A stretch of DNA of 64,000 bases, taken from a virus (taxonomy: Duplodnaviria > Heunggongvirae > Uroviricota > Caudoviricetes). A program made the position numbers and the translations under genes. The notes beneath the pieces were generated by a model. That model was not told where the DNA came from, searched no databases, and was given only the letters and a program-made list of their open reading frames with translations. Location: positions 50,816-114,815 of IMG/VR virus record IMGVR_UViG_3300033072_001087, one strand, 5' to 3'. Shown here piece after piece: positions 5,576 to 63,586 of this stretch. Numbering within the stretch: the first letter of the stretch is position 1; each line of letters begins with the position of its first letter.

Positions 5576-5614
5576 AGCGCTCCTGTGAACAATTGTTCTC
5601 ACCGTAGACGCGGC

Positions 5615-37078: not shown

Positions 37079-37215
37079 CCAATGGCGACAAAATCCTCGC
37101 CATTGTCAAGGACAATCGTGGTGGTATTCCGCTCCCAAAACCCAAAGCCGAACTCCTCAAACGCCTTGAAAGCGCCTACCGACACCGCGTCGAGTATGTC
37201 GAACAATCGCAGTGA
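36982..37215 (+). CDS. Hypothetical small protein.
   Basis: 77-aa ORF overlapping the 3' end of the phosphoesterase gene. Weak support. Confidence 0.2.
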   Translation: MYIFAPNYPMAQRYAELHRIKSFVYVTDECQVTNGDKILAIVKDNRGGIPLPKPKAELLKRLESAYRHRVEYVEQSQ

Positions 37216-37225
37216 ACAATTGTTC
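37214..37225. promoter_or_regulatory. Cheo-box-like palindrome GAACAATTGTTC (GAAC-N4-GTTC), a candidate LexA/SOS operator.
   Basis: Perfect 12-bp palindrome matching the Gram-positive-type LexA box core, about 90 bp upstream of the ATG at 37312. Confidence 0.45.
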
Positions 37226-37265
37226 GCATTCTTTGGGCTTTACTATCTAAAAATCTTGTGCTAAA

Positions 37266-37300
37266 ATTACTGTACATTAGTAAGTCTAATGTACAGTAAT
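37266..37300. promoter_or_regulatory. Perfect inverted repeat with 15-bp arms and a 5-nt spacer (attactgtacattag taagt ctaatgtacagtaat), an operator-like site adjacent to the RBS.
   Basis: Read directly. Ends 5 nt before the aggag RBS of the ORF starting at 37312. Confidence 0.6.
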
Positions 37301-37311
37301 TAGGAGCTGTC

Positions 37312-39636: not shown

Positions 39637-40170
39637 ATGAAAAGGTTCATGCAGCGTTACGCCGAAGGACGCACTTGGTTCGCTTTGTTTACGCGTGATA
39701 GCGACAGCCCACAGCCCTTTGCCATTGTTGATATACGCGACTCTGCGCTCTTGCGTAACTTCTTTTCGCGTGCATTTTCGCAGTATAACCACCGACTGAT
39801 TTCAGATTCGCTGATGCACTACATTGAACAGAGTGAATGGGATCGGCAAGGCTATTTTGACGCCATTATCCGCGTCGGTCGCCGCCACCCAAGTCGATCA
39901 CAAATGTTCCTACTGTCCTATGCGGCAACCCATACGGGATGGTTTCGCTTTCCCGAAGAAATGCGCGCCGACGTTTCCACTAAGAGCCTGTTTGTCTGCA
40001 CGGAACGGGGTTGGATGGCATGGAACGATGGCAACTATCGCATTACATCGGAAGGGCGTCGCGTCCTAAGAAATGCAATCCTAGATGAACGAGATCGAGA
40101 AAAATCAAGCCGGGATAAACGCCGCGCTCGGCAAAATCGCCAACGCGGCGGCGCAGGCGACAGCACTTGA
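39637..40170 (+). CDS. Hypothetical protein with basic C-terminal tail.
   Basis: 177-aa ORF. C-terminus RDKRRARQNRQRGG. Confidence 0.35.
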   Translation: MKRFMQRYAEGRTWFALFTRDSDSPQPFAIVDIRDSALLRNFFSRAFSQYNHRLISDSLMHYIEQSEWDRQGYFDAIIRVGRRHPSRSQMFLLSYAATHTGWFRFPEEMRADVSTKSLFVCTERGWMAWNDGNYRITSEGRRVLRNAILDERDREKSSRDKRRARQNRQRGGAGDST

Positions 40171-41080
40171 CACCTACAAATTAGACCTTGCCCCAAATAC
40201 ATTGGATCGTCAACGGCGCGATTTGTCGCTCTTTGCGGATTACTTGATGGGAAAAGGGATGCGCGTCGGCGATCTGTTCAACAGCGCCGAGGCGTGGCGT
40301 GGTATTACGTGGGGATTGGTCAAGGGGTTCGGGTTGTGGATGCAGCACAAGGGATACGCGTTGGGTTCGGTTGCGGTTAGATTTGCAACCGTCAAGCGCT
40401 ATGCCGCGCTTGCTGTACAATCTGGAATAATCGACGCAAATGAGGGCGCATTGATTAAATCCTTGCGCCCCTTTACGAACACACGCAATGTCGATGCAAA
40501 ACGCGCCAGAACACGTCTGGGCGCGAAAAAAGCCCATTCTACAGACTTGACGTTAGAGCAGCGAAAAACCCTCAAAGAACGCGCCTCCTCTACCCCACAA
40601 AGCGCGTGTTACGCCCTGCTCATGTGTTTACTTCTTGATCACGGTCTTAGAGTATCGGAGGTCATTCTGCTTACTGACGCGAACGTAGACACTACCCTGT
40701 GGACTCTCAGTTTCTATCGTCCAAAGGTTGATCGTCACGATATTCACCGCATGACGCAAGACACAATCCATGCTTACTTAGCCTACAAACCGTTTATAAT
40801 AGAAGGCGAGAAGCTGCTGCGTCAATCAGAACGCGGCGGCGCATTAGGCAAGCCCGGATTAACGCGTGGCGGCGTCGAACAAATCGTCAAACGACTTGGG
40901 AAAAACATCGGGGTCCCATCGCTCTCGCCCCATGATTGTCGGCATTCTTGGGCAACAGAATACGAGAAGAAACACACGCCGTTTGAACTGCGCGACGCAG
41001 GGGGCTGGAACAGCTTGGATATGCCAAATCGCTATGTCAACCGAAAACGAATCAGCAATCAAGGAGAGGACTTGGAATAA
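40085..41080 (+). CDS. Tyrosine recombinase / phage integrase.
   Basis: C-terminal catalytic region HDCRHSWATEY...GGWNSLDMPNRYV (R..H..R..Y). N-terminal SAM-like core-binding region. The true start may be downstream of 40085. Confidence 0.8.
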   Translation: MNEIEKNQAGINAALGKIANAAAQATALDTYKLDLAPNTLDRQRRDLSLFADYLMGKGMRVGDLFNSAEAWRGITWGLVKGFGLWMQHKGYALGSVAVRFATVKRYAALAVQSGIIDANEGALIKSLRPFTNTRNVDAKRARTRLGAKKAHSTDLTLEQRKTLKERASSTPQSACYALLMCLLLDHGLRVSEVILLTDANVDTTLWTLSFYRPKVDRHDIHRMTQDTIHAYLAYKPFIIEGEKLLRQSERGGALGKPGLTRGGVEQIVKRLGKNIGVPSLSPHDCRHSWATEYEKKHTPFELRDAGGWNSLDMPNRYVNRKRISNQGEDLE

Positions 41081-42483: not shown

Positions 42484-43257
42484 TCAAGCAAAGTTATCTG
42501 CGAACATTGGCAGCGTGTAGGCAACGGATAGCCGCTTACGTGCTGTTACCGAGTGAACTGGCGAATTATCCCCAAGAATGTACCGTCGTCCCGTGTTCCG
42601 CGCAGCGACGCCGGTAGTGCCGCTGCCGCACGTTGGGTCTAAGACGACATCGCCAGATAGCGTATAGGTTCGTATAAGATACTCGATCAAGCTAACAGGC
42701 TTTTGCGTCGGATGCAGCCCGGTTTCGTTCGCAAATTGATGAACGGTCTTCGGGTATCTCCACCCCTCGTTGACTGTACCGAGCAAATCGAACTTGCCGT
42801 AGTTGGTCGTCTTGCCTTTCGTCTTTGCCTTGTACGGCGTTCCAGCTTCCATTTGCGGGAAATATACCGGTTCTTTCCGAGAGAAAATCAGAATGTTCTC
42901 GTGTGAGCGAAGCGGACGGCGGTTCGCATCCAAGAAGCCGCTTCCGCGCGGCTTCTCCCAAATCATCTCGTAGCGAAATAAGTCGAGTGCGCTCATAACC
43001 AACATACTCGTGAATGGTTGAGATCCGGTGAGCGCAATTACGCCGTCCGACTTGATGATGCGGCGGAAACGCCGCCACATCGGTTCAAGCGGAATCAGCG
43101 TATCCCAACTGTTTTGCGTTACCGCGTAGGGTAAATCTGCGAAGATGAAATCGACAACGACTCCCGCCTCGTAAATCCAGTCGCACAGCGAGAACAGGTC
43201 CAGAAAATGAACCGCGTTGAATAGATCTGAGGCCGTCCGCGCTGGCAGCAGGTTCAC
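42484..43257 (-). CDS. DNA methyltransferase (N4/N6 class).
   Basis: FADLPY-type motif IV and VLDPTCGSGTTGVAA motif I. Confidence 0.7.
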   Translation of the reverse strand: MNLLPARTASDLFNAVHFLDLFSLCDWIYEAGVVVDFIFADLPYAVTQNSWDTLIPLEPMWRRFRRIIKSDGVIALTGSQPFTSMLVMSALDLFRYEMIWEKPRGSGFLDANRRPLRSHENILIFSRKEPVYFPQMEAGTPYKAKTKGKTTNYGKFDLLGTVNEGWRYPKTVHQFANETGLHPTQKPVSLIEYLIRTYTLSGDVVLDPTCGSGTTGVAARNTGRRYILGDNSPVHSVTARKRLSVAYTLPMFADNFA

Positions 43258-43266
43258 GATAGCGTC

Positions 43267-44397
43267 CTAACGGTTGAGGCTCATCGGCATGATCACGCAA
43301 ACGAGTCCGTCATAGCTTTCTGGGCGAATCACCACCGGATGCGCCGCGCCGTGAGTCTCCAGAATAATGCGCTCGCTGTCGATGATATTCAGCACGTCGA
43401 TCAAGTAGCGAATGTTATACGCCACTTCCAGCGCTTCCCCTTCGACTCCGGCGTCGATCATGCCCTCACTATCACCGCGTTCGGCGCTGCGTCCCAAGAT
43501 CGATAACTGTCCCGGTTCACTGGGGCTGGCAGGCGGTTGTGCGATGAATCGCGCGCTGAAGTTGTTGTCGCGCGCAAAAATTTCGGCTCGCTTGCATTGA
43601 TTGAGCAGTTCATCGGCATATACCGTTATCGATGTACTGTAGGTTTTTGGAACAATAGCGTTGAAGTCTGGGAATTTACCGCTGATCAATTGCGACGTAA
43701 TGATCGTGCTTTCGTAATAAAACGCCACACCCTCTCGTTCATCGAGCATGGATAGTCCAAGCGGCCGCTCTTCATCGGTAATCACACGCGCTACTTCCGC
43801 TAACGTTCTTGCGGGAATGATCATCGGTTCACTTTCAGCGGACTCGTCAATTTGACTTGTCCGAACTGACAGACGATACCCATCCGCTGAAGTCATTGTC
43901 AGCGCGTTATTGCCGAACTGAGTATAGATGCCACCCAAAACAGGGCGAGAGTCTTCCTTCGCCGCAGCAAAGACTGTTTGCGTAATCATCTGCTTGAATA
44001 CGCCGGATGGTAGTTGTACGGACGCCCCTTTTGTTTCAGGAATCGGAGGGAATTCTGACGCCGCAATGCCCTTGATGTTCGATTTGGTCGTACCACAGCG
44101 GACATTAACCGTTTGCGTTTGCGCGTCAAGTATTAGATCGACTCGTTCAGATGACAGGTTATTGACTAATTCAGCGAATGTCTTAGCGGGAAGCGTAATC
44201 GCGCCGGGAACATCGATTTTCGCACCGACATAGGTTGTGATGCTCATTTCGAGGTTCGTTGCGACGAGTTTGAGGCGGGCATCTTCGGTCATCAACAGCA
44301 CGTTCGCCAAGACCGGCAGAGTCGGACGCGACTCGACAGCTTTGGCGACAATACTTAATCCTCTGGCGAGCTGATCTTGCAAGATTGAAACACGCAT
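43267..44397 (-). CDS. dnaN: DNA polymerase III beta subunit (sliding clamp).
   Basis: 376 aa. N-terminus MRVSILQDQLARGLSIVAKAV...PVLANVLL and the three-domain clamp pattern. Confidence 0.8.
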   Translation of the reverse strand: MRVSILQDQLARGLSIVAKAVESRPTLPVLANVLLMTEDARLKLVATNLEMSITTYVGAKIDVPGAITLPAKTFAELVNNLSSERVDLILDAQTQTVNVRCGTTKSNIKGIAASEFPPIPETKGASVQLPSGVFKQMITQTVFAAAKEDSRPVLGGIYTQFGNNALTMTSADGYRLSVRTSQIDESAESEPMIIPARTLAEVARVITDEERPLGLSMLDEREGVAFYYESTIITSQLISGKFPDFNAIVPKTYSTSITVYADELLNQCKRAEIFARDNNFSARFIAQPPASPSEPGQLSILGRSAERGDSEGMIDAGVEGEALEVAYNIRYLIDVLNIIDSERIILETHGAAHPVVIRPESYDGLVCVIMPMSLNR

Positions 44398-45242
44398 TAC
44401 GTTGACTCCTCATTGATTGTTAGGTTCGCGAACATCGGTAGTGTTCGGATTGGATCGTAATTCATCCACAGCGATTCCATCTTCTGCTTTGGCGTCCCTG
44501 TGCCGCTAACTGTATTTACGGCAAAGTCCCTGCGCGTATACCCGTTTAAAGCGGAATACAACGCATTATCGTAGCCGCTCAAAATGACATATGCCTTCTT
44601 GATCGCGTTTAAAGCGGCGACCAACCGTTCGTGATGCGCATCATCAACATCATTTTCATACCGCGCTTCGGTCCGCGTCGATAAAACATATGGCGGATCA
44701 AGATAAATCAACGTCCGTTCGCGGTCAAATTCGCCGATCAGTTCCAGTGCGTCGCGGTTGGTCACAATGACCGTCGATAGCCGCGCGTGTAATTCCGGCA
44801 TTTCATCGACCGATGACAGGAAATCGCTGACCGACTTGCTCGTATTACGGCGAACGGTTGTGTTGATTGAGAACCCCCCAATGCCATTATGCCGTGTCCG
44901 ATTGACGTACCAGAAACGGAATGCGCGCTCAACATCATCCAATTCGCCGCGCAGCGATACGCGGTACTCGTTCGATGTGCTTTCGTCATAGAGCGCTAAC
45001 TGACACAGGCGATAAAATTCCGCGAACAACGCCTCATCGCGCAGCACTTTGAATAAGGCGTAGACATTCCGATTCACGTCGTTGTAGAGTTCAATCGGAA
45101 CGCGCGGCTTGTTGAGCAGAACAACGCCGCTTCCGCCATACGCATCCACGAACGTGTCGTATAAGGACTCGTCAGGGAAATAAGACAACAATTGCGCGAT
45201 CATGCCGCCTTTTCCGCCAAAATACTTGACCGGTGCGTTCAT
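44397..45242 (-). CDS. dam: DNA adenine methyltransferase (Dam-like).
   Basis: KYFGGKGGM (motif I region), DAYGGSG, YLDPPYVLSTR (DPPY). Start placed at MNAPVKYFGGKG. Confidence 0.75.
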   Translation of the reverse strand: MNAPVKYFGGKGGMIAQLLSYFPDESLYDTFVDAYGGSGVVLLNKPRVPIELYNDVNRNVYALFKVLRDEALFAEFYRLCQLALYDESTSNEYRVSLRGELDDVERAFRFWYVNRTRHNGIGGFSINTTVRRNTSKSVSDFLSSVDEMPELHARLSTVIVTNRDALELIGEFDRERTLIYLDPPYVLSTRTEARYENDVDDAHHERLVAALNAIKKAYVILSGYDNALYSALNGYTRRDFAVNTVSGTGTPKQKMESLWMNYDPIRTLPMFANLTINEEST

Positions 45243-45562
45243 TTTGTATCTAGTAATTTTGGCATGTACAGCGCGTGTTTGCCCATCACCCATCCATCCG
45301 GCATCGCGAAGATTTTTATCTTAATCGCCCAATCCGCAAACGCTTTTGCCTCAAGCAGCATCTTGATCTTGCCATCATCAAGGTTGGTTGCAGTTTGTGC
45401 TGCAAACAAGAGAAGCAAGCAGTACGATGCGCGCCAATAGACCATTTCGCGCCACGCTTTAAACCAGCGGTAAAGCAAGTACAATGGCACAAGAAATATC
45501 GCGAAGAACCACCCAACATCCGCGTTCATGAAGGCTGTCCAATCGATAATGCTGGCGTTCAC
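45239..45562 (-). CDS. Small membrane protein.
   Basis: Hydrophobic segment DVGWFFAIFLVPLYLLY. Confidence 0.3.
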   Translation of the reverse strand: MNASIIDWTAFMNADVGWFFAIFLVPLYLLYRWFKAWREMVYWRASYCLLLLFAAQTATNLDDGKIKMLLEAKAFADWAIKIKIFAMPDGWVMGKHALYMPKLLDTK

Positions 45563-45960: not shown

Positions 45961-47029
45961 CGTTACCCTCTGTGCGTTCCTTGAAAGCATTGCGGTAGAT
46001 AATAGGTTCAATCGACTTTCCCGACTTAAGCGCAAACAAATACCCATGTACATCTTTCGGGTAATTTGCTTGTACCCACAGCGCGAAGTCCCGTTGAGTT
46101 CCGCTCGGCGCAATTGATATTGCGTCCACGCACTCGTTTGTGATGCGTGTTACTGTTTCATCTATCTCTCTTTTCCAAGCACGAATTTGATCAAGGAACT
46201 CGTCTGGTACGCCATCAATTAGCTGCTCGTATTTGTCTTGCGCAACCGCATCAAGGATTCGGTTAAAGCTGCATCCCGTCAAAATGCGATGAGCCATTAC
46301 ATACGCATCCCCCTTGACTTTAAGACGCATATTGTCCGAATAGCGCAGCACCCAGCCCTCCTCATTCGCACTTAAAGATTGCGCCGCATTCAAAATGTCA
46401 TCTATACTATCGAAGGTGTAGGTTCGCGGACGCATAAACCCATACGCATTTGCTATAACATCTAATTCAGCCGCATAAAGCTCGTGACCTAATTGAATAT
46501 TGCGCCCGCCAAGCAGCACAACACCCTCGTAATCGCCGTAATTTACGACGATGCGGTTTTCTGGATAGATGATTTCAAATAACAGCGTAACCCTGCTGTC
46601 AAATGCGAAATTGGGATGATGTTGTTGAAACCATGCGCTCGCCCATTGTGCTTGAGCGCCGGTGAACGATCCGCGCGTTGCCATTTTCCATTGATCGTTG
46701 TGGAAATACAAAATACCAAGCGAACCATCCATCTTTTCCGTTATCTCGATCAAACGAGCGCCCGGCATAGGAAAGATTTGTCCGTAATTCCAGAACTTTG
46801 AGAACGGACGGGCTATGCACTCGCCGTTCTGAGTGTTAAAAATCAGCCCTCGTGAATTCGCTTCGAACCAGTTCCATCCTGACGGCGGCTTAAATTGTGC
46901 TGCTTGGGTGTAGTTGAATAACACTAACCCGTCGTGGTATGTAGCTGATACCTCTCCATACTGGCTCCAATCTTGTTCGCCGCGCTGGATTAACGACTGT
47001 ATATCGCCCAAGGACCGGATACTATTCAT
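45947..47029 (-). CDS. ATP-dependent RNA/DNA ligase-family nucleotidyltransferase.
   Basis: ITEKMDGSLG is the KxDG lysine-adenylylation motif I. 360 aa. Confidence 0.5.
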   Translation of the reverse strand: MNSIRSLGDIQSLIQRGEQDWSQYGEVSATYHDGLVLFNYTQAAQFKPPSGWNWFEANSRGLIFNTQNGECIARPFSKFWNYGQIFPMPGARLIEITEKMDGSLGILYFHNDQWKMATRGSFTGAQAQWASAWFQQHHPNFAFDSRVTLLFEIIYPENRIVVNYGDYEGVVLLGGRNIQLGHELYAAELDVIANAYGFMRPRTYTFDSIDDILNAAQSLSANEEGWVLRYSDNMRLKVKGDAYVMAHRILTGCSFNRILDAVAQDKYEQLIDGVPDEFLDQIRAWKREIDETVTRITNECVDAISIAPSGTQRDFALWVQANYPKDVHGYLFALKSGKSIEPIIYRNAFKERTEGNDEAS

Positions 47030-47820
47030 GATGCTCCCCCAAATAAGCTCAATTGCACAACGCCGTCTTTAAGCGGCTTATCCGTAGGAAATTCGGCGAT
47101 GCGCCGGTTTGCCATTTCGACATATTTTCCAGAACGATCGCAGCCTAAGAAACAACGCTTGTGTTTAAGCGCGGCTTCAGCAACCGTTCCGGATCCCATA
47201 TACGGATCAAGGATAACTTGCGCATTCGTCGTGCGAATGCAGCGGCTTGCCAATTCCAGCGGAAATGGCGCGGGATGTTCGGTACCAGAGGCTTGTGGAA
47301 TATCCCACACATCCGTCAACCCGGACGATCCTTCGACAAACGTAAAATCAGCCATCGCGATGATGTAAATGACCTCATAGCTAGGCAAGAAATAACCACG
47401 ATTGTGATTGACTCCACCAGATCGCCGCCAAATAATAATCTGACGCAGCGGCGCATCACCGATGATCTTTTCAGCGTGACGTTGGTATAACCCATTCTGC
47501 ACGCGCCACTTGTGGTTGTAGAATATGACCCCTGTTTTCGGGTTAATCACACGCAGCAGTTCGCGCATCACCTGCCGCTGCCAGTCAATGTACTCATCTT
47601 CCGGCAAATCGTCTGCGTAGCCGTCGTAGCCATTTGTGACTAATTCGCCATGCCATCCCGAAAGCGGCGGATGCTTGAATGAATTGCCGCTGCTGTTGCG
47701 GATATTGTATGGCGGCGAAGTCACGACCGAGTCAACAAAACCATCGGGAATTCGCTTAAGGTAATCTAAATCTTTCTCAACAGAAATTGTATTAAGTTGC
47801 GGTGGGAGTACCATCAGCAT
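47026..47820 (-). CDS. DNA methyltransferase (N4/N6 class, ParB-less).
   Basis: VVTSPPYNIRN motif IV and DPYMGSGTVAEAA motif I. Confidence 0.8.
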   Translation of the reverse strand: MLMVLPPQLNTISVEKDLDYLKRIPDGFVDSVVTSPPYNIRNSSGNSFKHPPLSGWHGELVTNGYDGYADDLPEDEYIDWQRQVMRELLRVINPKTGVIFYNHKWRVQNGLYQRHAEKIIGDAPLRQIIIWRRSGGVNHNRGYFLPSYEVIYIIAMADFTFVEGSSGLTDVWDIPQASGTEHPAPFPLELASRCIRTTNAQVILDPYMGSGTVAEAALKHKRCFLGCDRSGKYVEMANRRIAEFPTDKPLKDGVVQLSLFGGAS

Positions 47821-52487: not shown

Positions 52488-53536
52488 TGCCACCACTTCC
52501 AATCGACGCGCGTGATGTTCAGCGGCACAAATTCGCGCTGCCAACCGAGTTCGTCGTACATCACGCGGTCAAAAAGCGCGAACAATTGTTCAGGCTTGTA
52601 CAGCCGCGCGTGCTTGTCCGCCAACGTACATGCCCTGAAGTATTTGACCATCGGTTCGGGCATATCCTGACACGCCCAAAGCATACACTTCGCCGCCATG
52701 TAAATATCGCTGGCAGGTACGGTATCGGTACTCCCAAGCAGCGTTTCGGTCGGATAAAAGTTCTCCCACCGGTCGATCATGTACGAGAACTTCGCGCCCG
52801 CCTCGACCGCGCATGTCCAGTCGATCAGGTAGCCGCGATGCTGTCCGCCGCCACCGATGCCACCGGGTTTGAGCAGGATGTTATCCGGCACTACCGCCCC
52901 GTGCAAGTAGCCAAAGGCGTGCGGGATGGTCAGCGCAGCCAGAACCCGCCGCCAGATCCACGAAATCGCTTTCACAGGAACATGACGATCATAGATGTCA
53001 GCAAGCGTTGTCAGCGAAATCAGTTCATCGCCCTTCACATCATCGCTGTAGGCGAGAATGTGATAGTAGCCGTCGTCGTCCATGTCGCTTTCGACGAGGC
53101 GCGGAATGTACTTGAACGCTTCGCCTTCGTACAACGGCAGCGCGTTGATCCGGTTTAGGATGGCTTCTTCGCGGTCGAACAAGTCTTTGTCGCCGGTGAG
53201 AAGCCGTTTTGTGACCGTCCCATCCGCATTCAACGTGACGGACGCGATTTCGCCGACGCCGAGCATGTGTGAATCATCTTCGACCCACAGCTCATATTTC
53301 GCGTTCAAGTCGGCGATGAAGTCCTCCGCCAGCCCGTACACTTCCTTGTCGCCCATGTGTGCATCGGGGTGATAGGACTTCACAAGCCGCCGCCGAACGT
53401 CGTCAATTTGCGCTTCGACGTTCCCAAAAACCATCGCCGGTGTCGATTGGCGCATCTGTGCGTGCAGTGAACGCAGTTGATCGCGTACGGGCAATTGCTG
53501 AAAAGTTTGCAGGTTCATGTGCGACTCCATTCGCAT
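52484..53536 (-). CDS. J-domain (DnaJ-like) fused to a protein-kinase-like fold.
   Basis: RRRLVKSYHPDAHMGD carries the HPD tripeptide of J-domains. YLHGAVVPDNILL resembles the kinase catalytic loop (HRDLKPENILL, with the Asp replaced), and YLIDWT is DFG-like. Confidence 0.4.
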   Translation of the reverse strand: MRMESHMNLQTFQQLPVRDQLRSLHAQMRQSTPAMVFGNVEAQIDDVRRRLVKSYHPDAHMGDKEVYGLAEDFIADLNAKYELWVEDDSHMLGVGEIASVTLNADGTVTKRLLTGDKDLFDREEAILNRINALPLYEGEAFKYIPRLVESDMDDDGYYHILAYSDDVKGDELISLTTLADIYDRHVPVKAISWIWRRVLAALTIPHAFGYLHGAVVPDNILLKPGGIGGGGQHRGYLIDWTCAVEAGAKFSYMIDRWENFYPTETLLGSTDTVPASDIYMAAKCMLWACQDMPEPMVKYFRACTLADKHARLYKPEQLFALFDRVMYDELGWQREFVPLNITRVDWKWWQ

Positions 53537-54663
53537 ACGCGCCGTCCATGCCCCATGATTTTCACGGGAGCGAATGCGGCGACTTCGATTAGCTCAACCA
53601 ATGACTTCAGCGAGTGTACTTCGATGTAGTCTTTCATTCCGATTCGATCTGTTCCGCGCAAATCGATAACATTCCATAGCTGTTCTGGATTGAATCGATC
53701 AACATGCGACAATGCGATTTCGTGAATGCCGCCCAGAATGTTGTCTGCGGCGTAACGCAGCAGCTTGCGGTCAAGCCAGCCAACGCGCCATGCTCCTTGT
53801 AGTTCCGGTAGTCCGTCGTGATTGTGTCGCTCGACTATTGCCTTACGATCGAGCATATGACTCTCTGACGGGAACGGTCCAACGCCATGCCGCGTGGCAT
53901 AGATGCGGGTTACGCCAACCCGCTTGACCTGTGTGCCGGACGGAATCATCTCCAGAGCGCCTGAAAATGTCGTATCGCTCGACGTGACATATGGGCGATA
54001 GCCGCGATCGCAATCCAACAGCGCTCCTTGTGCGCCTTCAAAGATAACGTGATCAAAGCCGCCGAGTACACTTTCGTCCGAAACGGCGGTCACGACGTTA
54101 TTCAATGCGTCGATCAAATCATCGCCGATTTCCCGATAGAAACTCTCCACCGGACAAATGCGCGCTTCAAGGTACTGCAGCTTCTCATAGACTCTTTGCG
54201 GATCGTTGATCAGATCGCATACGCGCAGCGCCATATCGGGATGGGTTTCTGCCCAGCGCTTCGTGGTGCCTACCCCATTCGCCGTCGTACCGCGCTTGTG
54301 TATGCTGGCGTTGATCAGCGACGTGTACTTGTGATACTCTGTCACGACCAACGCTTGCGGATGAACGATCAGCGCCGGATTTTCACCTAATAGGCGCAGC
54401 CGTTTGTATTCTGCCCACGCCTCGATCGGATCGAAACACACATGCCGACCAAGATACGTGGAAGCGCCCTCAAACGTGCCGCTTCCGAATTGACGGAAGG
54501 TGTGATGGCGAAAATCGTCCGATGTGACGTTGTGCGCAGCGTTCGCGCCACCGTTGTACCGCGCTACCATCTTAGCAGCGTGCTGGCGCGTCAAAAACGC
54601 GGTCGTCATGCCTTTACCTTCGTCGCCGAACCCAAGTCCGGCGACTACCGTTGCGCTTTTCAT
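53515..54663 (-). CDS. Adenylosuccinate synthetase homolog (PurA-like / possibly PurZ-like).
   Basis: GFGDEGKGMTTAFL (GDEGKGK P-loop), YNGGANAAHN (GGxNAGH), IFEGAQGALLDCDRGYRPYVTSSDTT (very close to PurA [25 protein letters not shown]), ATRHGVGPFPSE. At 382 aa it is shorter than bacterial PurA. Confidence 0.75.
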   Translation of the reverse strand: MKSATVVAGLGFGDEGKGMTTAFLTRQHAAKMVARYNGGANAAHNVTSDDFRHHTFRQFGSGTFEGASTYLGRHVCFDPIEAWAEYKRLRLLGENPALIVHPQALVVTEYHKYTSLINASIHKRGTTANGVGTTKRWAETHPDMALRVCDLINDPQRVYEKLQYLEARICPVESFYREIGDDLIDALNNVVTAVSDESVLGGFDHVIFEGAQGALLDCDRGYRPYVTSSDTTFSGALEMIPSGTQVKRVGVTRIYATRHGVGPFPSESHMLDRKAIVERHNHDGLPELQGAWRVGWLDRKLLRYAADNILGGIHEIALSHVDRFNPEQLWNVIDLRGTDRIGMKDYIEVHSLKSLVELIEVAAFAPVKIMGHGRRVCEWSRT

Positions 54664-55778: not shown

Positions 55779-57404
55779 TCAAGCCCCAAGTGTGCCACTT
55801 AAGAGTTCCAGCACTTGTGCTTTTTCCGCCACCCATTCTAGAATACTCTCTGGTAATTCAGAGAGAATTTCATCGATAGAGCGCAAGCGTAGGTGCGCTG
55901 CCATCAATAATAAATCCTGTGGGGTGATTGTGTCATCCCCTACAAAATCGGGGTAATATTGTGTAACATACTCCAATGGCTCTAGCGCATCCTGATCGAT
56001 CGCCTGTTCAACGACGGAAAAGAGCGTCGGATCATGAAAATCGCCGCGATCAAGCAAGCGTAGGTTGTGACTGCGAAACTCGCGTTTCAAGTACCAGTGA
56101 TGCGTGAGGTATCCATAAGCAACCGACTGCTCCAGCATGTGTGAGTCGGGAACGGGCGCAACAATGGTGACGGGCTGTTTTATGGACGGCGTTTCGCGAA
56201 TAGAATCGATCGGCAATGACAGCGACAGCGCGATCTTCTGCTGTGCGTCGATTCGTTCCAAGTGATTAGAAGAGGAAAGCAGTTCAATCAGCCGCAGCGC
56301 CGCGTTTTTGCGTTCTTGAAACGATTGTGGATTGCCGCGCAGTTCATGGGCGATCATGTAATCCACAACTGGAATCGCCTGCGCGATCGCGCTTGCCCAT
56401 GTCCCCGCCTTCACTAGATCGTCCGGATCCGCGCCCTGCGGAAGTTCTGCTACCCACAAGTCATAAGCTGTCTTCGCCAACTGCGCGATCCCACCGACCG
56501 TCGCGCTCTCCCCCGCCTTGTCACCATCCAGCGCGAGAATGGTTTTGCTCTTGCCGATGAGTTTTGCCTGTGCGTCGGTCAGTTGTGTACCCATCTGCGC
56601 GACGACATCCCGATACCCCGCCAAATGACACTGAATGACATCGAAATAGCCTTCTACCAGCACCATTGAACGTGTTGAGCGAATGACGGATTTGCCCTGC
56701 ACGTAGCCGTACAGGATGGAGCCACGATCAAAGATTTCGGTGCGTGGCGTATTTAAGAATTTCGGCTGCACATCATCGCTCAATGAGCGCCCGGAAAAGC
56801 CGACGATCGCGCCACTTGCATCGAATAACGGAATAATCAACCGTCCGCGAAACAATTCCGTAATTCCGTGTTCGCCTTTATGCAGCAACCCGATTGCCAA
56901 CAATTCGCTTTCCTTGAAGCCCCGCTTTTCGAGTGTTTTTGCGACGCCCCAACGCGGTGAATAGCCCAAGCGAAATTCGCTCATGAGCGCTTCGCCAAGC
57001 CCACGCGCTTCAAGGTGATCGCGCGCTGGATTAGATGTTTCGACAAGCGACTGACTGTACAATTCAGCCGCCGCCGCCAACGCGTCGTAAAGCCGCTGCT
57101 TGTGCCGCGATCCCTGCCGTTGAATTTCGACTCCCGCTTCTTTCGCAAGATTCTCAATCGCGGTTGCCAGATCCCAACCGTGTTTGAGCCGCGCGAAATC
57201 AATGACATCGCCGCCCGTTGCGCACGCCCCAAAACAGCGCCATTTCCCCGTATCCGCGTTGAGAACAAAAGAAGGCGTCGAATCGTCGTGCAGCGGACAG
57301 CGGCATTTGTAGCGATTGGTTCCGGTTTGCTTGACGTCTGGCGCGAACTGCCGTACATACGACAGCAGATCGATTTTGTTCTTAATATCTTCGATTGTGG
57401 ACAA
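55779..57404 (-). CDS. dnaG: DNA primase.
   Basis: Zinc-binding CHC2 region YKCRCPLHDDSTPSF...WRCFGAC, TOPRIM LVEGYFDVI...DGDKAG. Confidence 0.85.
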   Translation of the reverse strand: MSTIEDIKNKIDLLSYVRQFAPDVKQTGTNRYKCRCPLHDDSTPSFVLNADTGKWRCFGACATGGDVIDFARLKHGWDLATAIENLAKEAGVEIQRQGSRHKQRLYDALAAAAELYSQSLVETSNPARDHLEARGLGEALMSEFRLGYSPRWGVAKTLEKRGFKESELLAIGLLHKGEHGITELFRGRLIIPLFDASGAIVGFSGRSLSDDVQPKFLNTPRTEIFDRGSILYGYVQGKSVIRSTRSMVLVEGYFDVIQCHLAGYRDVVAQMGTQLTDAQAKLIGKSKTILALDGDKAGESATVGGIAQLAKTAYDLWVAELPQGADPDDLVKAGTWASAIAQAIPVVDYMIAHELRGNPQSFQERKNAALRLIELLSSSNHLERIDAQQKIALSLSLPIDSIRETPSIKQPVTIVAPVPDSHMLEQSVAYGYLTHHWYLKREFRSHNLRLLDRGDFHDPTLFSVVEQAIDQDALEPLEYVTQYYPDFVGDDTITPQDLLLMAAHLRLRSIDEILSELPESILEWVAEKAQVLELLSGTLGA

Positions 57405-57612
57405 GCCGTATCCCTCGTGTGACGCGCGGCGTATAATGAATACGCCCCTGCTTCGCCAGTTTCAAAACGTGCCAACGCGCCGTACCTACATTCATATCGA
57501 ATTTCTCGGCAATATCGTACAGCGATGGCGAACAATCTTGGTCATAGATGAAATCGCGAATAAAGATCTCCATCTCTTGCCGTAATTGCCGTCCTTCTAA
57601 CCCCTTACGCAT
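57382..57612 (-). CDS. LexA-like winged-helix DNA-binding protein (DBD only, no protease domain).
   Basis: QEMEIFIRDFIYDQDCSPSLYDIAEKFDMNVGTARWHVLKLAKQGRI follows the LexA N-terminal domain pattern. 76 aa. Confidence 0.45.
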   Translation of the reverse strand: MRKGLEGRQLRQEMEIFIRDFIYDQDCSPSLYDIAEKFDMNVGTARWHVLKLAKQGRIHYTPRVTRGIRLVHNRRY

Positions 57613-57624
57613 GGCGATACCAAC

Positions 57625-58242
57625 CTACCCTATATCGAACAACTGCATCTGTTTTACCATATCCAACGCCTCTGGAATTGACTCCATTGGCATTTGTTTG
57701 CGTTTGCTAATTTTCGCGAAGGTAAACGGTCGTCCGATTCCCAATCTCCACGTAAACCAGACCGATGCGAATTGACTACTGCTGCCCTCAAAGCCGATGT
57801 TTGGCATTCCGTAGTCGATACGCTTATTCATGAACACGAACTCGAACCCGTAGCGATCAAAGAGCGCCTGCGCCTGCCCGGATCCCAATACATCGAGTGG
57901 CATGATCAGCGCAAATGGCTTATCCAGCAAATAGGCGCGTGTCAGCCATTTATACTTTATGCTGAACGGCGGATTTGTGACCATGACATCGTAGTGATCA
58001 GGAACGCTTTCACTCAGAAAGTAGTTCTGTCCGGTCAAAAGATCGCCGCTAATGACCTTATGTCCGTTTGTCAAGAGCGTCCGTTCAATATAACCACCCC
58101 CTCGCGCTGGTTCCCAAATCACCCACTCCGGCTTCAAGTACGGAAGAATCGGATCGAGCGCGTAATCAGGAGTTTGGCACTGATCGCGTCGATTTACGGT
58201 CGATCCGTTCGACTGCTTGTCGTTGCGCTTGGGCTTGCTCAT
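57625..58242 (-). CDS. N6-adenine DNA methyltransferase.
   Basis: MVTNPPF (NPPF motif IV) and an upstream EPARGGG motif-I-like region. Confidence 0.7.
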   Translation of the reverse strand: MSKPKRNDKQSNGSTVNRRDQCQTPDYALDPILPYLKPEWVIWEPARGGGYIERTLLTNGHKVISGDLLTGQNYFLSESVPDHYDVMVTNPPFSIKYKWLTRAYLLDKPFALIMPLDVLGSGQAQALFDRYGFEFVFMNKRIDYGMPNIGFEGSSSQFASVWFTWRLGIGRPFTFAKISKRKQMPMESIPEALDMVKQMQLFDIG

Positions 58243-59702
58243 ATCCCGCTACCGGCATACTCATCGGCGTCAAAGATCTTCATGTAAGACGTGTCGATGC
58301 GGAACAAAATATCATCATGCGTATCGACATTGCGCCCTTTGGCGATGATAAGTTCCGCTTCGTGCGGATCGCCATATCCCTTGTTCTTTTGTAGCTTCGA
58401 TGGACGCCACAGAAACAGGACGCCATCGGCATTGTCCTGCGCGGCTGAAGTGCCAAACAGATCATTCATGTTGAATTTGTCGTCTTCGCTGCGCCCTTCG
58501 TAATTTCGGTTCATTTGCGTGGCGCAGATCAACGGCGCGTGTGCAAAATCTTTCTTTGACCACTTGTCGATTCGCGTGAACATCGCCGCCATTTCCGATG
58601 GCGTATCCGTTCCGCCAGCAAACTTGGTCGTCTTCGCGTAGTCAAGGAATAGAATGTCAAAGCCCGGATTATAGAATGCGCTGTAAATCTCGCTCTCCAA
58701 TTCATCCAGCGTCGGGCTTACCTTGCGTAGAATCGTGAATTGTCCGCTGCCGACCAGCGTTGCGACGCGCTGCTGCGCTTCCGCCAGCCGCTCCAGTTCG
58801 TCTCCCTGAAAATCGCGTTTTTGATAGTGCGTGTAATCTATGCGTCCAAGATTGCAAATCAGGCGATCGATAAACTCGTTGGGGTCCATTTCCAGTGTCA
58901 CGTACAGAACGCGATACCCCGCCATCGCGGCGTTGAGCGCCCAATTCATCATGACTACCGTCTTCCCCCAGCCTTGCGGCGCAGAGAAGATATAGAGTCG
59001 CCCGCGCTGCCAGCCCAACAACGCCTCATCCATCGCTTTGAGTCCGGTTGTGATGCCCGGCTTAAACGACGGATCGGCGATCTCGGCTTTGACCTGTTCG
59101 ATACGCTTTTGTACTGTATCCACAGCGTCATACAACGATTGCCCGCTCATGCTGTCAAGCCGCATTTGCAGTTGACGTTCGGCGGAGCGAATTTCTGCCA
59201 GCGCGGATGGCAAATCGCGCTGCGAATCGTCAAGAATACTAAGCGCATGTTGGCTCAAATACATAAACCCACGACGGACGGATAAACGCATCAAAGCGTC
59301 CGCGTAGGATTGCACAGAAAGCCCCTTTACAGACGCGATCAGCGTGTTTAGGTAGCTATCCCCCCCAACGTAATCCAGAACCGATCTAGCCCCATTTTTG
59401 ACCGATTCCAAGCGTGTTCTGAGAGTTGTTAGATCGACGTGCTGCCCATCGCGTGCGATTGCTTGCATCGCCTTGTAAATCGTGCCGTTTTGCACGAAAT
59501 AGAAATCTCTGTAATCGAGTCCGCCGATGCTTTTCATCAGCGCCGATGTATCAGCGCTTGGCGACTGCCCCTTGAGCAGAATCGCGCCTAACAGCGATTG
59601 TTCAAGTGTGCGATCGGACGGATAATCAGGATCCTTTTTGTTGCCGACAACGACTTTCGTTGGCGTCGAAATCTGGTTGTTGACCCAAATATCGATGGTC
59701 AT
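58239..59702 (-). CDS. dnaB: Replicative DNA helicase (DnaB family).
   Basis: N-terminal EQSLLGAILLKG, Walker A IFSAPQGWGKT, RecA-like core. Confidence 0.85.
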   Translation of the reverse strand: MTIDIWVNNQISTPTKVVVGNKKDPDYPSDRTLEQSLLGAILLKGQSPSADTSALMKSIGGLDYRDFYFVQNGTIYKAMQAIARDGQHVDLTTLRTRLESVKNGARSVLDYVGGDSYLNTLIASVKGLSVQSYADALMRLSVRRGFMYLSQHALSILDDSQRDLPSALAEIRSAERQLQMRLDSMSGQSLYDAVDTVQKRIEQVKAEIADPSFKPGITTGLKAMDEALLGWQRGRLYIFSAPQGWGKTVVMMNWALNAAMAGYRVLYVTLEMDPNEFIDRLICNLGRIDYTHYQKRDFQGDELERLAEAQQRVATLVGSGQFTILRKVSPTLDELESEIYSAFYNPGFDILFLDYAKTTKFAGGTDTPSEMAAMFTRIDKWSKKDFAHAPLICATQMNRNYEGRSEDDKFNMNDLFGTSAAQDNADGVLFLWRPSKLQKNKGYGDPHEAELIIAKGRNVDTHDDILFRIDTSYMKIFDADEYAGSGI

Positions 59703-59704
59703 GT

Positions 59705-60703
59705 TCAGCCTCGCGGGGTTGATGCAAGACGCGCGATCTCGTCACGCTTCCTGAAAAACTCGGCGATTTTCTCTGGATCGGCTGGTGCCATTTTCGTCTC
59801 CTGTGCTGGTTTGATGCGCTTGAGCAGTCGTTCGCGCGCAACCCGGACCGCCGTGTCGCTGCGTTCGTGCGCCAAAAACGCCTCAAAGTGATGTTGGATG
59901 GTTTCGGGCTTGGTCGGAATCGGTGTATCACCGTACATCATGCGCCAATATGCGCCGAATGCCTCGACGTGTGGTGCTGTTACTTCGCCGTCGATCTTAA
60001 AATCACCCCATTTTCCCGTACCCCGCCCTTGAAAATAAGCGATCAACTTGCCCGGAAACGGCCCGGCCTTGAGCCGGTAAGCAACGCAAACCGCATCCAT
60101 CCACGCACGATGACTCGCGAGTATTTCGTCGTCGCTTTGCGACGACAGATCTTTTAAATCTTTTTTCTTTTCTTTGTCTTTATCTTTGTCTTTAGGTCCT
60201 ATAGGCCCCGGGACTTTAGCCTTAAGAGACAAGAGAAGAGAGTCTAGGATCCGCGCGCGCGCGTCCGAAGGCAGCACCGCTAAATCTGGCTGTGCTTCAA
60301 GGTTTTCCCTCAACTGTTCAGCAAGCACCGCTAAATCTGGCTGTGCTTCTTCGACGGTTTCGGGCAGCACCGCTAAATCTGACGATGCTTTCGCTGCGAC
60401 ATATTCAAGGTTATCGACGTGACGATCTTGCAGTTCGATGCGGGTTGAAATGCCCCGCGCGGCTTCTGATTTGGTGGGTGTTGTGCATTTAAGATAGCCA
60501 AGCCGTTCAAGCGACTCGCGTGCTTCGCGTGTTTTGCTGACACTCATCTTACAGGCTGCGGCGGTTGTCTCAAGGGACTCGTCGCTGTTTGCGCCGAGCG
60601 ATAGATAATGACCGAGAAGCCGATGCTCGTATGGGTCAAGCTCTTCCGCCAGCATCGGCATGGTGTAGTCGTAGCGGGGAGCGGTTGAAATAATGGTTTG
60701 CAT
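59705..60703 (-). CDS. Replication initiation protein (HTH N-terminus) containing internal repeats.
   Basis: Position upstream of dnaB. wHTH-like N-terminus. Repeated peptide (Q)PDLAVL(AEQ) three times. Confidence 0.45.
   Translation of the reverse strand: MQTIISTAPRYDYTMPMLAEELDPYEHRLLGHYLSLGANSDESLETTAAACKMSVSKTREARESLERLGYLKCTTPTKSEAARGISTRIELQDRHVDNLEYVAAKASSDLAVLPETVEEAQPDLAVLAEQLRENLEAQPDLAVLPSDARARILDSLLLSLKAKVPGPIGPKDKDKDKEKKKDLKDLSSQSDDEILASHRAWMDAVCVAYRLKAGPFPGKLIAYFQGRGTGKWGDFKIDGEVTAPHVEAFGAYWRMMYGDTPIPTKPETIQHHFEAFLAHERSDTAVRVARERLLKRIKPAQETKMAPADPEKIAEFFRKRDEIARLASTPRG
60273..60391. repeat. Three direct repeats of about 26 bp (agcaccgctaaatctggctgtgcttc), a candidate origin with iterons inside the initiator gene.
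   Basis: Copies at 60273-60298 and 60324-60349 are identical. The third, at 60366-60391, has a few mismatches. Confidence 0.5.
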
Positions 60704-62163: not shown

Positions 62164-62354
62164 ACTGCGTCTCCCGCAATAATTAATTTGGCGATTACGA
62201 AAGAATAAGGCGCAATGCTCGTAAGCCGTGCGCCCTTAGTTTTTCTCAATATTGTATCGGGTTTGTTTGCCATTGACCATTGAGACTTGTTTTGCTCTTT
62301 TATCCCTGCTATCATTTATTCTATCACCTTAAATCTCTCAAGGCAAGGGTCAAA

Positions 62355-62594
62355 ATGTCAAGGAAAATAGGATCGGGATTTATAAAAGAAGGCGAAACAG
62401 CAGTGCATGTTCGTCTTAAATCTGACGTTCACGGCGCTGCGGCGTTGTTGATCGAAACCAACACGGCGCATAAGGGCAAGACGGTTGAAATGGTACTGGA
62501 CGAAATGCTGCGCGAAGAATTACGGCTGCATATCGAAGCGTACCAAAAAATAGAAAATGCAAAGCAGAAGGCTTTAGCGCATCTGGTCGAGTAG
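62355..62594 (+). CDS. Small protein (about 80 aa) at the start of a plus-strand unit divergent from recT.
   Basis: ORF following a 190-bp AT-richer intergenic region. Confidence 0.3.
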   Translation: MSRKIGSGFIKEGETAVHVRLKSDVHGAAALLIETNTAHKGKTVEMVLDEMLREELRLHIEAYQKIENAKQKALAHLVE

Positions 62595-62671
62595 GTGGTA
62601 TAATAGACGGCATCAGTGATGTCCGTTTATGTGTGGGAAAATGACCACAACAACCTCTCAAGGATAAGCCA

Positions 62672-63586
62672 ATGAGCCTAGCAGTACGAACGGCGGATGG
62701 TCTTGACGACCAGACCGCTATTACGAGTCGGTCGGAACGGTTAAAGGCGCTTGAGGCGCGAATCGAAACCAACAAGCGTGCGTTCATTCAGGTCGGCATG
62801 GATCTAGCCGAGATCCATGCCGATCGTTTGTATAAAGAGTCGGGTTATGCCAACTGGAACCAATACTGCCGCGATCGGTGGGGCTTCAGCGGACGCAAGG
62901 GTTATTTCCAGATCGGTGCGGCATTGATTGCGATGGAAATTGAAACCGATACCCCCGCCACCAGCGAATCACAGGTGCGCCCTTTGACGCTTGACGGCTT
63001 GAGCGATGACGCGCGCAGCATCATCTGGAATCGCGCCGCCCAAGACGAACGCACGACCGGAGACGCGCCAACCGCTAAAGTCGTGACTGAACACCGCGAT
63101 CGCTTTATTGTCGAAGCCTGCCCCTACGAATACATCAAAGAGTCTGTGAACAATTGTTCACTTCAACCAAAAGACGCCGCCGCCTTGATCGTTGCTTTGG
63201 ATTCCGCCCCGAATCGCGTTGTGCGCGATGCGTTGGCCAGTGCCAAAATCCAAGACAAGTCTTTGGCGTTGGAATTGGTTCGACTCTACAACGATAATTC
63301 ATCGACGTTCGGCGAAGTCATGGCTTCCCGTCACATTCAAGTCGAAGATACCGCGATTCCGCTTGAGAAAGCGCGTGTCGGCGATCTGCGCGTACTCTTG
63401 GATGCAAAGGCAAAAGAGCATCGCGCAGCCGCGCAAGCCGAACGCGATGCTGACAAGCGGGTGACGCCGATCTCGTTGGTGATTTACCGTAACGATCCGC
63501 GCGCCACGTACCGCGAACTGCAGCGCGCGTTGACGACCGACGATCTTCGCGGACTAAAAACCATCCTAAACGCGGCGGATGTTTGA
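62672..63586 (+). CDS. Hypothetical protein.
   Basis: 304-aa ORF. Confidence 0.35.
   Translation: MSLAVRTADGLDDQTAITSRSERLKALEARIETNKRAFIQVGMDLAEIHADRLYKESGYANWNQYCRDRWGFSGRKGYFQIGAALIAMEIETDTPATSESQVRPLTLDGLSDDARSIIWNRAAQDERTTGDAPTAKVVTEHRDRFIVEACPYEYIKESVNNCSLQPKDAAALIVALDSAPNRVVRDALASAKIQDKSLALELVRLYNDNSSTFGEVMASRHIQVEDTAIPLEKARVGDLRVLLDAKAKEHRAAAQAERDADKRVTPISLVIYRNDPRATYRELQRALTTDDLRGLKTILNAADV

Follow-up and report, generated by a model that had tools for sequence, protein, structure and literature searches.

LexA carries both autocleavage and dimerisation in its C-terminal domain (PMC8565304), and phage regulators that consist of a LexA-type DNA-binding domain (DBD) on its own are common and already described. 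Their type example, and the sole characterised member of the family that we found, is gp6 of the Bacillus thuringiensis tectivirus GIL01. This truncated LexA homologue, 44% identical to the DBD of B. thuringiensis LexA, is encoded by one of the eight early genes of the virus (Fornelos et al., 2018, PMC6182141). It binds a 14-bp palindrome, GaCACAn nTGTGaC, centred at -43.5 and overlapping the -35 element of the late promoter P3; this site is distinct from the LexA box, and gp6 occupies it simultaneously with host LexA, whose own boxes (dinBoxes) lie downstream (PMC6182141). Late transcription is thereby activated, and Lys38 in the gp6 recognition helix is essential (PMC6182141). Here we analyse a gene encoding a stand-alone LexA-type winged helix on the minus strand at 57382..57612 of a 64-kb window, the whole stretch of DNA under study (positions 50,816 to 114,815 of the IMG/VR record IMGVR_UViG_3300033072_001087, a Caudoviricetes phage), to which all coordinates refer. 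The gene starts with ATG and encodes 76 amino acids (aa), MRKGLEGRQLRQEMEIFIRDFIYDQDCSPSLYDIAEKFDMNVGTARWHVLKLAKQGRIHYTPRVTRGIRLVHNRRY. Its product is very probably a DNA-binding protein made of a LexA-type DBD and nothing else and, by analogy with gp6, we read it as a RecA-insensitive, sequence-specific phage transcription factor that would time later gene expression, a reading to which we give a probability of about 0.55.

The domain assignment is carried by family profiles and by the predicted fold. Directly compared with Pfam, the protein aligned through residues 12-67 with positions 9-65 of the 65 in LexA_DNA_bind (PF01726) at 21.7 bits, below the gathering threshold of 23.7 (E=1.7e-4), and the LexA equivalog TIGR00498 was its sole NCBIfam match, at 25.8 bits against a cutoff of 110.95 and over model positions 9-70 of 203. 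With phmmer, LexA took all nine top places among PDB sequences (best E=1.2e-3). Exhaustive searching with HMMER of 1.84 billion representatives, standing for ~15 billion public proteins, yielded 267 relatives at E<=1e-3 after clustering at 50%, and among the best 150 of these LexA_DNA_bind was present in 148 and Peptidase_S24 in eight, while 86 were no longer than 100 aa. The profile of these 86 short proteins, which include the query and no true LexA, matched every solved LexA over the full domain at E=6e-24 to 1e-22, with the next non-LexA structure at 1e-7. With the query and its closest relative excluded from the profile, leaving 84 relatives, the query still scored 90.9 bits, compared to a maximum of 7.3 for 2000 shuffled sequences.

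An AlphaFold model from a 150-sequence alignment (mean predicted local distance difference test score, pLDDT, 87.5) places helices at residues 3-25, 31-37 and 42-54, the last being the recognition helix, followed by a beta-hairpin wing at 58-70 with strands at 58-60 and 68-70. The ten best Foldseek matches in the PDB were LexA without exception and 27-33% identical to the query, nine of them at 1.0-1.3 A root-mean-square deviation (rmsd) and one at 2.7 A. The E. coli LexA DBD superposes on the model at 1.0-1.2 A over 61-64 residues (31-33% identity; query template-modelling, TM, score 0.74-0.78), and the top viral structure matches were phage proteins of 65-140 aa named 'LexA repressor DNA-binding domain-containing'. 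The sub-threshold Pfam score is hence a near miss caused by divergence, and the assignment is rescued by the family profile and the fold. A first-pass annotation, made from the sequence by a model, had seen a LexA N-terminal winged helix in this 76-aa product and staked that view on similarity to the LexA N-domain in profile searches; such searches, run here, bear it out, weakly by direct Pfam score and strongly by family profile (90.9 bits), as does the fold match at ~1 A.

Across the 86 short relatives the conserved residues are those of a scaffold, namely P29, A45, H48, G56, P62 and I68, with R66 of the wing invariant, and the start of helix 3 is variable (positions 41-44 and 46-47). These variable positions align opposite the base-contacting N41, E44 and E45 of E. 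coli LexA and opposite Lys38 of gp6. At the predicted base-contacting positions our protein has G43, R46 and W47 (helix 3, VGTARWH), unlike E. coli LexA. Variability at this end of the helix is the pattern of a family of regulators each with its own operator.

In domain content the protein equals the N-terminal cleavage fragment of LexA (residues 1-84), which still binds operators specifically, if weakly, and is immune to inactivation by RecA*. That fragment is a transient breakdown product, however, whereas the phage protein is the product of a dedicated, conserved gene; LexA cleavage fragments are cleared from cells by ClpXP (cited in bioRxiv 10.1101/2020.07.14.201889). Compared with the canonical repressor (PF01726 plus PF00717; TIGR00498), it shares the fold and signature of the N-terminal domain, including the conserved R-G-I-R-L of the wing, but is phage-encoded, differs from E. 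coli LexA in the base-contacting residues of helix 3, and is without linker, Ala-Gly cleavage site, S24 Ser/Lys peptidase and dimerisation domain, since the chain ends six residues beyond the wing (HNRRY and stop). A hidden Markov model of the C-terminal portions of nine full-length relatives detected no S24-like open reading frame (ORF) in any frame of the window (best E=0.5), where only one LexA-type domain is present. The protein would therefore be non-cleavable and unable to sense RecA*, and incapable of LexA-style dimerisation. The absence of an S24 part and the non-cleavability proposed in the first-pass annotation thus both stand.

Nor is the gene a recent copy of a host LexA domain, as the best full-length LexA in the exhaustive search reached only E=2.7e-8 and ~34% identity and, one protein apart, none of the 150 best relatives exceeded ~39%. 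Judged by sequence, the 76-aa protein is not a LexA orthologue but adds a divergent new member to the large family of stand-alone LexA-type phage proteins. The exception is an 83-aa protein with 65% identity (P0002), the sole close relative in a word-indexed search of 5.8 billion clustered proteins; scans of IMG/VR and GTDB genomes, and tblastn against 50,697 phage genomes, gave no further ones.

This family is mostly phage-borne, and most of its members have 65-100 aa. Its consensus matches 98 deposited phage genomes, including SfV, SfII, cdtI, Stx2, Bacillus phages, the Myxococcus phages Mx4/Mx8/Mx9 and the Mycobacterium phage Wildcat. The members in SfV, SfII, cdtI and Stx2 are annotated as 'LexA-like protein' or 'transcriptional repressor', and PHROG 3502 and 24920, both matched by the query, carry the label 'unknown function'. 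On the same stand-alone profile GIL01 gp6 scores 57.6 bits, SfV orf42 65.0 and Wip1 ORF3 57.9, which places all three in one sequence family with our protein despite 26% identity between the latter and gp6. The tailed-phage proteins (SfV orf42, the Stx2/SfII/cdtI homologues, Wildcat gp13, those of Mx4/Mx8/Mx9 and that of Bacillus phage 11143) resemble it in being small, with a single LexA_DNA_bind domain, and in lying in early, replication or nin regions, but are only 25-37% identical to it, and some are extended C-terminally (SfV orf42 has 108 aa).

An early or replication-region context recurs among relatives (L001, L002, L003/4, L007, L008, L010, SfV and GIL01). One follows a helicase and a Toprim gene and precedes NinG (L002), two lie among small early genes upstream of a terminase gene (L003, L004), two are in other early regions (L007 and L008, the latter near an integrase gene), and another belongs to a prophage of Leptospira, where Gam-like and Dam-like genes flank it (L010); L009 provides the sole cellular context. 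Two or more LexA-type domains in tandem occur in 28 of the 150 best relatives. Proteins of this type (P0003, P0004, P0005, P0008 and others) have 130-230 aa, two or, rarely, three to five domains, and no S24. Their existence suggests that it takes two domains, bound to a dyad, to make the functional unit on DNA, so that single-domain members would presumably pair on DNA. 'LexA-like' proteins of Thermus phages (PMC11437467), considered as a further parallel, turned out to be integrase-adjacent repressors in lysogeny-switch positions and are not relevant here.

Several lines of evidence show that the ORF is a real, conserved gene under selection. P0002 is encoded on a 1.86-kb contig (L001) whose gene order is the end of DnaB, a DNA methyltransferase (MTase), the winged-helix gene and the start of dnaG, which overlaps the end of the winged-helix gene. 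The MTase there has 66% identity to its counterpart in the window. The two winged-helix genes differ at 22, 14 and 44 nucleotides in codon positions 1, 2 and 3, respectively, and their nonsynonymous divergence (dN) is 0.27, the same as for the adjacent MTase, with synonymous sites saturated; by this sequence comparison the gene is under purifying selection at the protein level. Independent gene calls on another assembly of the phage (L005) give the same gene structure, including the overlap with dnaG. Synteny at 65% identity, third-position bias and the lack of an S24 remnant in any frame rule out a chance ORF or a pseudogene remnant of a full LexA. On L001 an HNH (AP2-type) homing-endonuclease gene (143-900) is inserted after the first ~19 MTase codons, the MTase 5' end being duplicated downstream; this insertion beside the winged-helix gene looks mobile.

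The gene forms part of a replication operon, all on one strand, in the order RecT-like, initiator-like, DnaB, MTase, 76-aa gene and DnaG. Upstream, 12 nt separate it from the stop codon of the MTase gene (57625..58242, minus), and the two are presumably co-transcribed; this MTase has 205 aa, an NPPF motif and an N6-adenine-type character, and matches PHROG 799 ('DNA methyltransferase') at E=2.8e-30. Downstream, the last 23 nt overlap the TTG start of the DnaG-type primase gene (55779..57404, minus), as they do in L001 and L005, which suggests translational coupling. The primase shows DNAG_N (E=1.7e-28), Zn_ribbon_DnaG and Toprim/Toprim_2 and matches PHROG 6444 at E=2.3e-84, so that both neighbours named in the first-pass annotation, dnaG and an MTase, are now identified by Pfam and PHROG. 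The DnaB helicase gene (58239-59702, minus) lies upstream of the MTase on the same strand as the winged-helix gene and is preceded by an initiator-like gene for 332 aa (59705-60703, minus) with a weak N-terminal HTH_36 match. Within the latter gene, at 60273-60391, are three direct 26-nt repeats (AGCACCGCTAAATCTGGCTGTGCTTC) spaced by 51 and 42 nt; these iteron-like repeats look, from their sequence and position, like a lambda-O-style origin. The operon is faced by a divergent region at 62.2-62.35 kb (62164-62671), next to an unannotated 79-aa ORF (62355-62594), which may be a genetic switch.

Likenesses to GIL01 gp6 extend beyond sequence. Both proteins are single winged-helix DBDs (66 aa in gp6, 76 aa here) and both are encoded among early regulation or replication genes, gp6 directly after the DNA polymerase gene and ours between dnaB/MTase and dnaG; moreover, host-type LexA boxes occur in both phage genomes. 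There are differences as well. Pairwise identity is 26% over 54 residues, the essential Lys38 of gp6 aligns with Gly43, and a palindrome census found no gp6 site (GaCACAn nTGTGaC) in the window, the last two points indicating a different DNA specificity but not a different kind of protein. The host of GIL01 belongs to the Firmicutes and that of our phage probably to the Chloroflexota, the neighbours here are an MTase and a primase, and a 14.9-kb tectivirus compares with a phage of ~115 kb whose large terminase is T4-type and whose gene set is unrelated to that of P22. Activation at a late promoter is a property of gp6; our protein is known from its sequence and a model.

Modelled on gp6, the 76-aa protein would be made together with the replication proteins, as its position 12 nt after the MTase gene, its overlap with dnaG and its sharing an operon with dnaB imply. 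With nothing to cleave, it would give no response to RecA*. Helix 3 and the wing would provide sequence-specific binding, with two copies on one short palindrome, and it would act as a transcription factor on later genes, by activation or by repression. On balance, we take it to be a transcription regulator rather than a replication or methylation accessory. Of the roles offered by the first-pass annotation, a repressor is compatible with this, even if the characterised precedent, gp6, is an activator, whereas an anti-repressor acting through mixed LexA dimers is unlikely because the C-terminal dimerisation domain is missing (PMC8565304).

The best candidate target in the window is a palindrome with the architecture of a Gram-positive/Chloroflexi-type LexA box. 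GAAC-N4-GTTC occurs five times in the window, compared to 1.1 expected, and four of these are the identical 12-mer GAACAATTGTTC, with AATT at the centre; in an unbiased palindrome census (T)GAACAATTGTTC(A) was the only long palindrome that stood out. Copy 1 (5587..5598), a candidate site, is located in a divergent region; it directly adjoins a Shine-Dalgarno sequence, that of a minus-strand gene, provided that this gene starts at ATG 5575. Copy 2 (37214..37225), the box singled out in the first-pass annotation and a real one, is intergenic and a candidate operator for the 76-aa protein or host LexA; 14 nt separate it from the -35-like hexamer that follows, part of a promoter-like site (37239-37267, TTTACT-17-TAAAAT, with TG) ahead of an operon including an integrase-like gene (40085-41080). 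Copy 3 (52580..52591) is inside the 3' part of a 350-aa kinase-like ORF, and copy 4 (63148..63159), with the full 14-mer TGAACAATTGTTCA, is inside a 304-aa ORF of unknown function. The fourfold identity of the AATT centre suggests, at the level of sequence, a reader sensitive to the whole 12-14 bp. Near copy 2, a perfect inverted repeat that is unique in the window (37265-37301; 16-bp arms AATTACTGTACATTAG and CTAATGTACAGTAATT, 5-nt spacer) extends from the -10-like hexamer as far as the Shine-Dalgarno sequence for gene 37312, and could be an operator or a hairpin in the 5'-untranslated region. A scan of IMG/VR for GTGAACAATTGTTC gave at least 118 loci, none related to the phage and none with a LexA-type ORF, and was uninformative. 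Footprinting and analysis of box-gene co-occurrence had at their disposal one close relative, the 1.86-kb L001.

Whether such boxes resemble those of the host depends on what the host is. The DnaN sliding clamp of the phage (43267-44397, minus) has 70-76% identity to DnaN of three Anaerolineae genomes (L011-L013) and 42-45% to that of other Chloroflexota, and 18 of its 18 genome matches were Chloroflexota. From these identities it is probably a recent capture from the host, which would accordingly belong to the Anaerolineae (Chloroflexota). The Anaerolineae loci were also considered as related prophages and rejected, as their flanks share nothing with the phage and they are host chromosomal dnaN genes; the 18 Anaerolineae loci from the DnaN search contained no lexA, no S24 gene and one GAAC-N4-GTTC. 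According to PMC4951493, which cites the Dehalococcoides study (Fernandez de Henestrosa 2002), Firmicutes and Actinobacteria use GAAC-N4-GTTC as their LexA box, and Chloroflexi use variants of it. As the probable host phylum uses boxes of the GAAC-N4-GTTC type, the four phage boxes look like host-type SOS boxes. They may be read by the 76-aa protein, by host LexA as in GIL01, or by both; that the 76-aa protein binds the four of them is, on sequence grounds, a tentative proposal that we hold to be possible and rather doubtful.

A number of points weigh against the proposed regulator and its candidate target. The role rests, by analogy, on one characterised relative with 26% pairwise identity, whose essential Lys38 is replaced by Gly43, so that DNA specificity must differ. 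An isolated LexA DBD reportedly binds DNA much more weakly than the dimer does, and no dimerisation element is evident in the 76-aa protein. The four boxes have no common promoter geometry, one being upstream of a -35-like hexamer, one at a Shine-Dalgarno sequence and two intragenic, and none is near the promoter region of the protein's own operon (~62.2-62.35 kb). Four identical copies with essentially no degenerate ones in the window are unusual for transcription-factor sites. Finally, the analysis covered 64 kb of a source contig of 114,815 bp.

The alternative that fares best, though we judge it unlikely, is a division of labour as in GIL01, in which host LexA, through the boxes, subjects some promoters of a possibly temperate phage to SOS control and the 76-aa protein binds another site. 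This would be exactly the GIL01 arrangement, with LexA on dinBoxes and gp6 on its own palindrome (PMC6182141), and it agrees with the integrase-family gene in the operon downstream of the 37214 box and with the fit of the box to the LexA motif type of the host phylum (PMC4951493). However, a census of direct repeats, palindromes and dyads of the window revealed no second recurrent operator candidate, the inverted repeat at 37265-37301 occurring only once; two of the four boxes are intragenic, and an identical AATT spacer in all four would be tighter than is usual for LexA boxes.

Somewhat less likely again is an uncleavable LexA mimic that shares the GAAC-N4-GTTC boxes of host LexA and, in infected cells, occupies SOS boxes of phage and host, leaving their promoters blind to RecA-stimulated LexA cleavage. 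The LexA DBD fold, the four perfect boxes with one and the same AATT centre, and a likely Anaerolineae/Chloroflexota host, from a phylum with GAAC-N4-GTTC variants as LexA box (PMC4951493), all speak for it. Yet the distance to the closest full-length LexA in the exhaustive search (E=2.7e-8, ~34% identity) indicates no recently captured host domain, the base-contacting positions of helix 3 are unlike those of E. coli LexA and variable family-wide, a monomeric DBD would be a poor competitor of dimeric LexA, and gp6, the precedent, binds a site other than the LexA box (PMC6182141). The competitor at SOS boxes of the first-pass annotation thus finds host-type boxes in the window but is not favoured, given the lack of a close LexA, the different helix-3 contacts and the separate site of gp6. 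The full proposition, that the phage protein and host LexA read the same four GAACAATTGTTC boxes and that during infection the uncleavable phage copy takes over the SOS boxes of the phage, and perhaps also those in the host chromosome, and so uncouples them from RecA, we consider improbable.

We give little credence to a replication accessory, a small winged helix that would assist primase or helicase, for instance during loading or when the origin is remodelled. Location between dnaB and dnaG with an end overlapping the dnaG start, in the window phage as well as in L001, would suit it, as would the relative that follows a helicase and a Toprim gene in L002 and family cross-matches to DnaD_N (11 of the 150 best relatives) and HTH_36 (21 of 150). 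Nevertheless, the phage has a separate initiator candidate, the 332-aa protein with three iteron-like repeats, most relatives have no primase neighbour, the base-contacting positions vary as in operator-specific regulators, and the characterised member gp6 is a transcription activator.

Least credible of all is a controller-like or targeting partner of the adjacent MTase, in the manner of PapI/PefI acting with Dam methylation. In its favour, an MTase is directly upstream in the window, in L001 and in lambdoid phages of the SfV/Stx type, no non-LexA fold matches better than PefI, and FaeA cross-matches 26 of the 150 relatives. Against it, the window and SfV MTases have no detectable homology (PF05869 Dam compared to an unassigned NPPF enzyme), and most other relatives have no adjacent MTase. 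Phage replication and nin regions often contain genes of both types, so that chance may account for their adjacency in two lineages. Like our protein, PapI, PefI and FaeA are single winged helices of ~70 aa (TM 0.72 for PefI), and they act with Dam methylation where our gene adjoins an MTase; but identity is 15%, the signature of our protein is clearly LexA_DNA_bind, and there is no evidence of an Lrp-type partner. The succession of a small N6-adenine MTase gene and a LexA-type domain recurs in SfV (L147 2851-3827), SfII, cdtI and Stx2, with different MTase families; in SfV the LexA-DBD gene directly follows the DNA adenine methyltransferase gene, with the orf42 start overlapping the dam stop. 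A conserved, homologous MTase plus LexA-DBD cassette was rejected, as nothing beyond the NPP[FY] motif is common to SfV Dam (PF05869) and the MTase of the window.

Other genes in the window encode a large terminase, an integrase-family protein, a sliding clamp, an RNA ligase, a PNK-phosphatase, five DNA MTases and a PurA/PurZ-like enzyme, a content that marks it as part of a large phage. The tyrosine-integrase-family gene (40085-41080, plus; Pfam E=2.5e-14) suggests a temperate or plasmid-prophage lifestyle. The five MTases (5807-7105, 42484-43257, 44397-45293, 47026-47820 and 57625-58242; three N6_N4, one D12 and the NPPF enzyme, which is unassigned) constitute an unusually heavy anti-restriction load for 64 kb. 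An adenylosuccinate-synthetase homologue (53515-54663, minus), short at 382 aa, matches Pfam at E=1.4e-49, scores well below the NCBIfam cutoffs for PurA and PurZ, and is ~37% identical to 'PurA-like' genes of cluster C mycobacteriophages. From sequence, this gene might point to a pathway for a modified purine of the 2-aminoadenine type; neither DatZ nor MazZ was recognised near it. If so, phage DNA might be base-modified, which would change how the boxes are read.

Altogether, the finding is correct but ordinary, and the 76-aa gene leaves current understanding unchanged. It confirms stand-alone LexA DBDs as a widespread module of small phage regulators, and extends this family, which as a whole is under-explored, with GIL01 gp6 its one studied member, to a phage of Chloroflexota. 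Very few phages of this host phylum have been studied. One genome brings together a single LexA-type domain and four identical host-type SOS-box palindromes, a testable pairing. If the protein bound these boxes, it would offer a simple system for how a phage decouples or re-wires SOS-controlled promoters and, were the boxes shared with host LexA, the protein would be a viral 'SOS-blind LexA' in a Chloroflexota phage.

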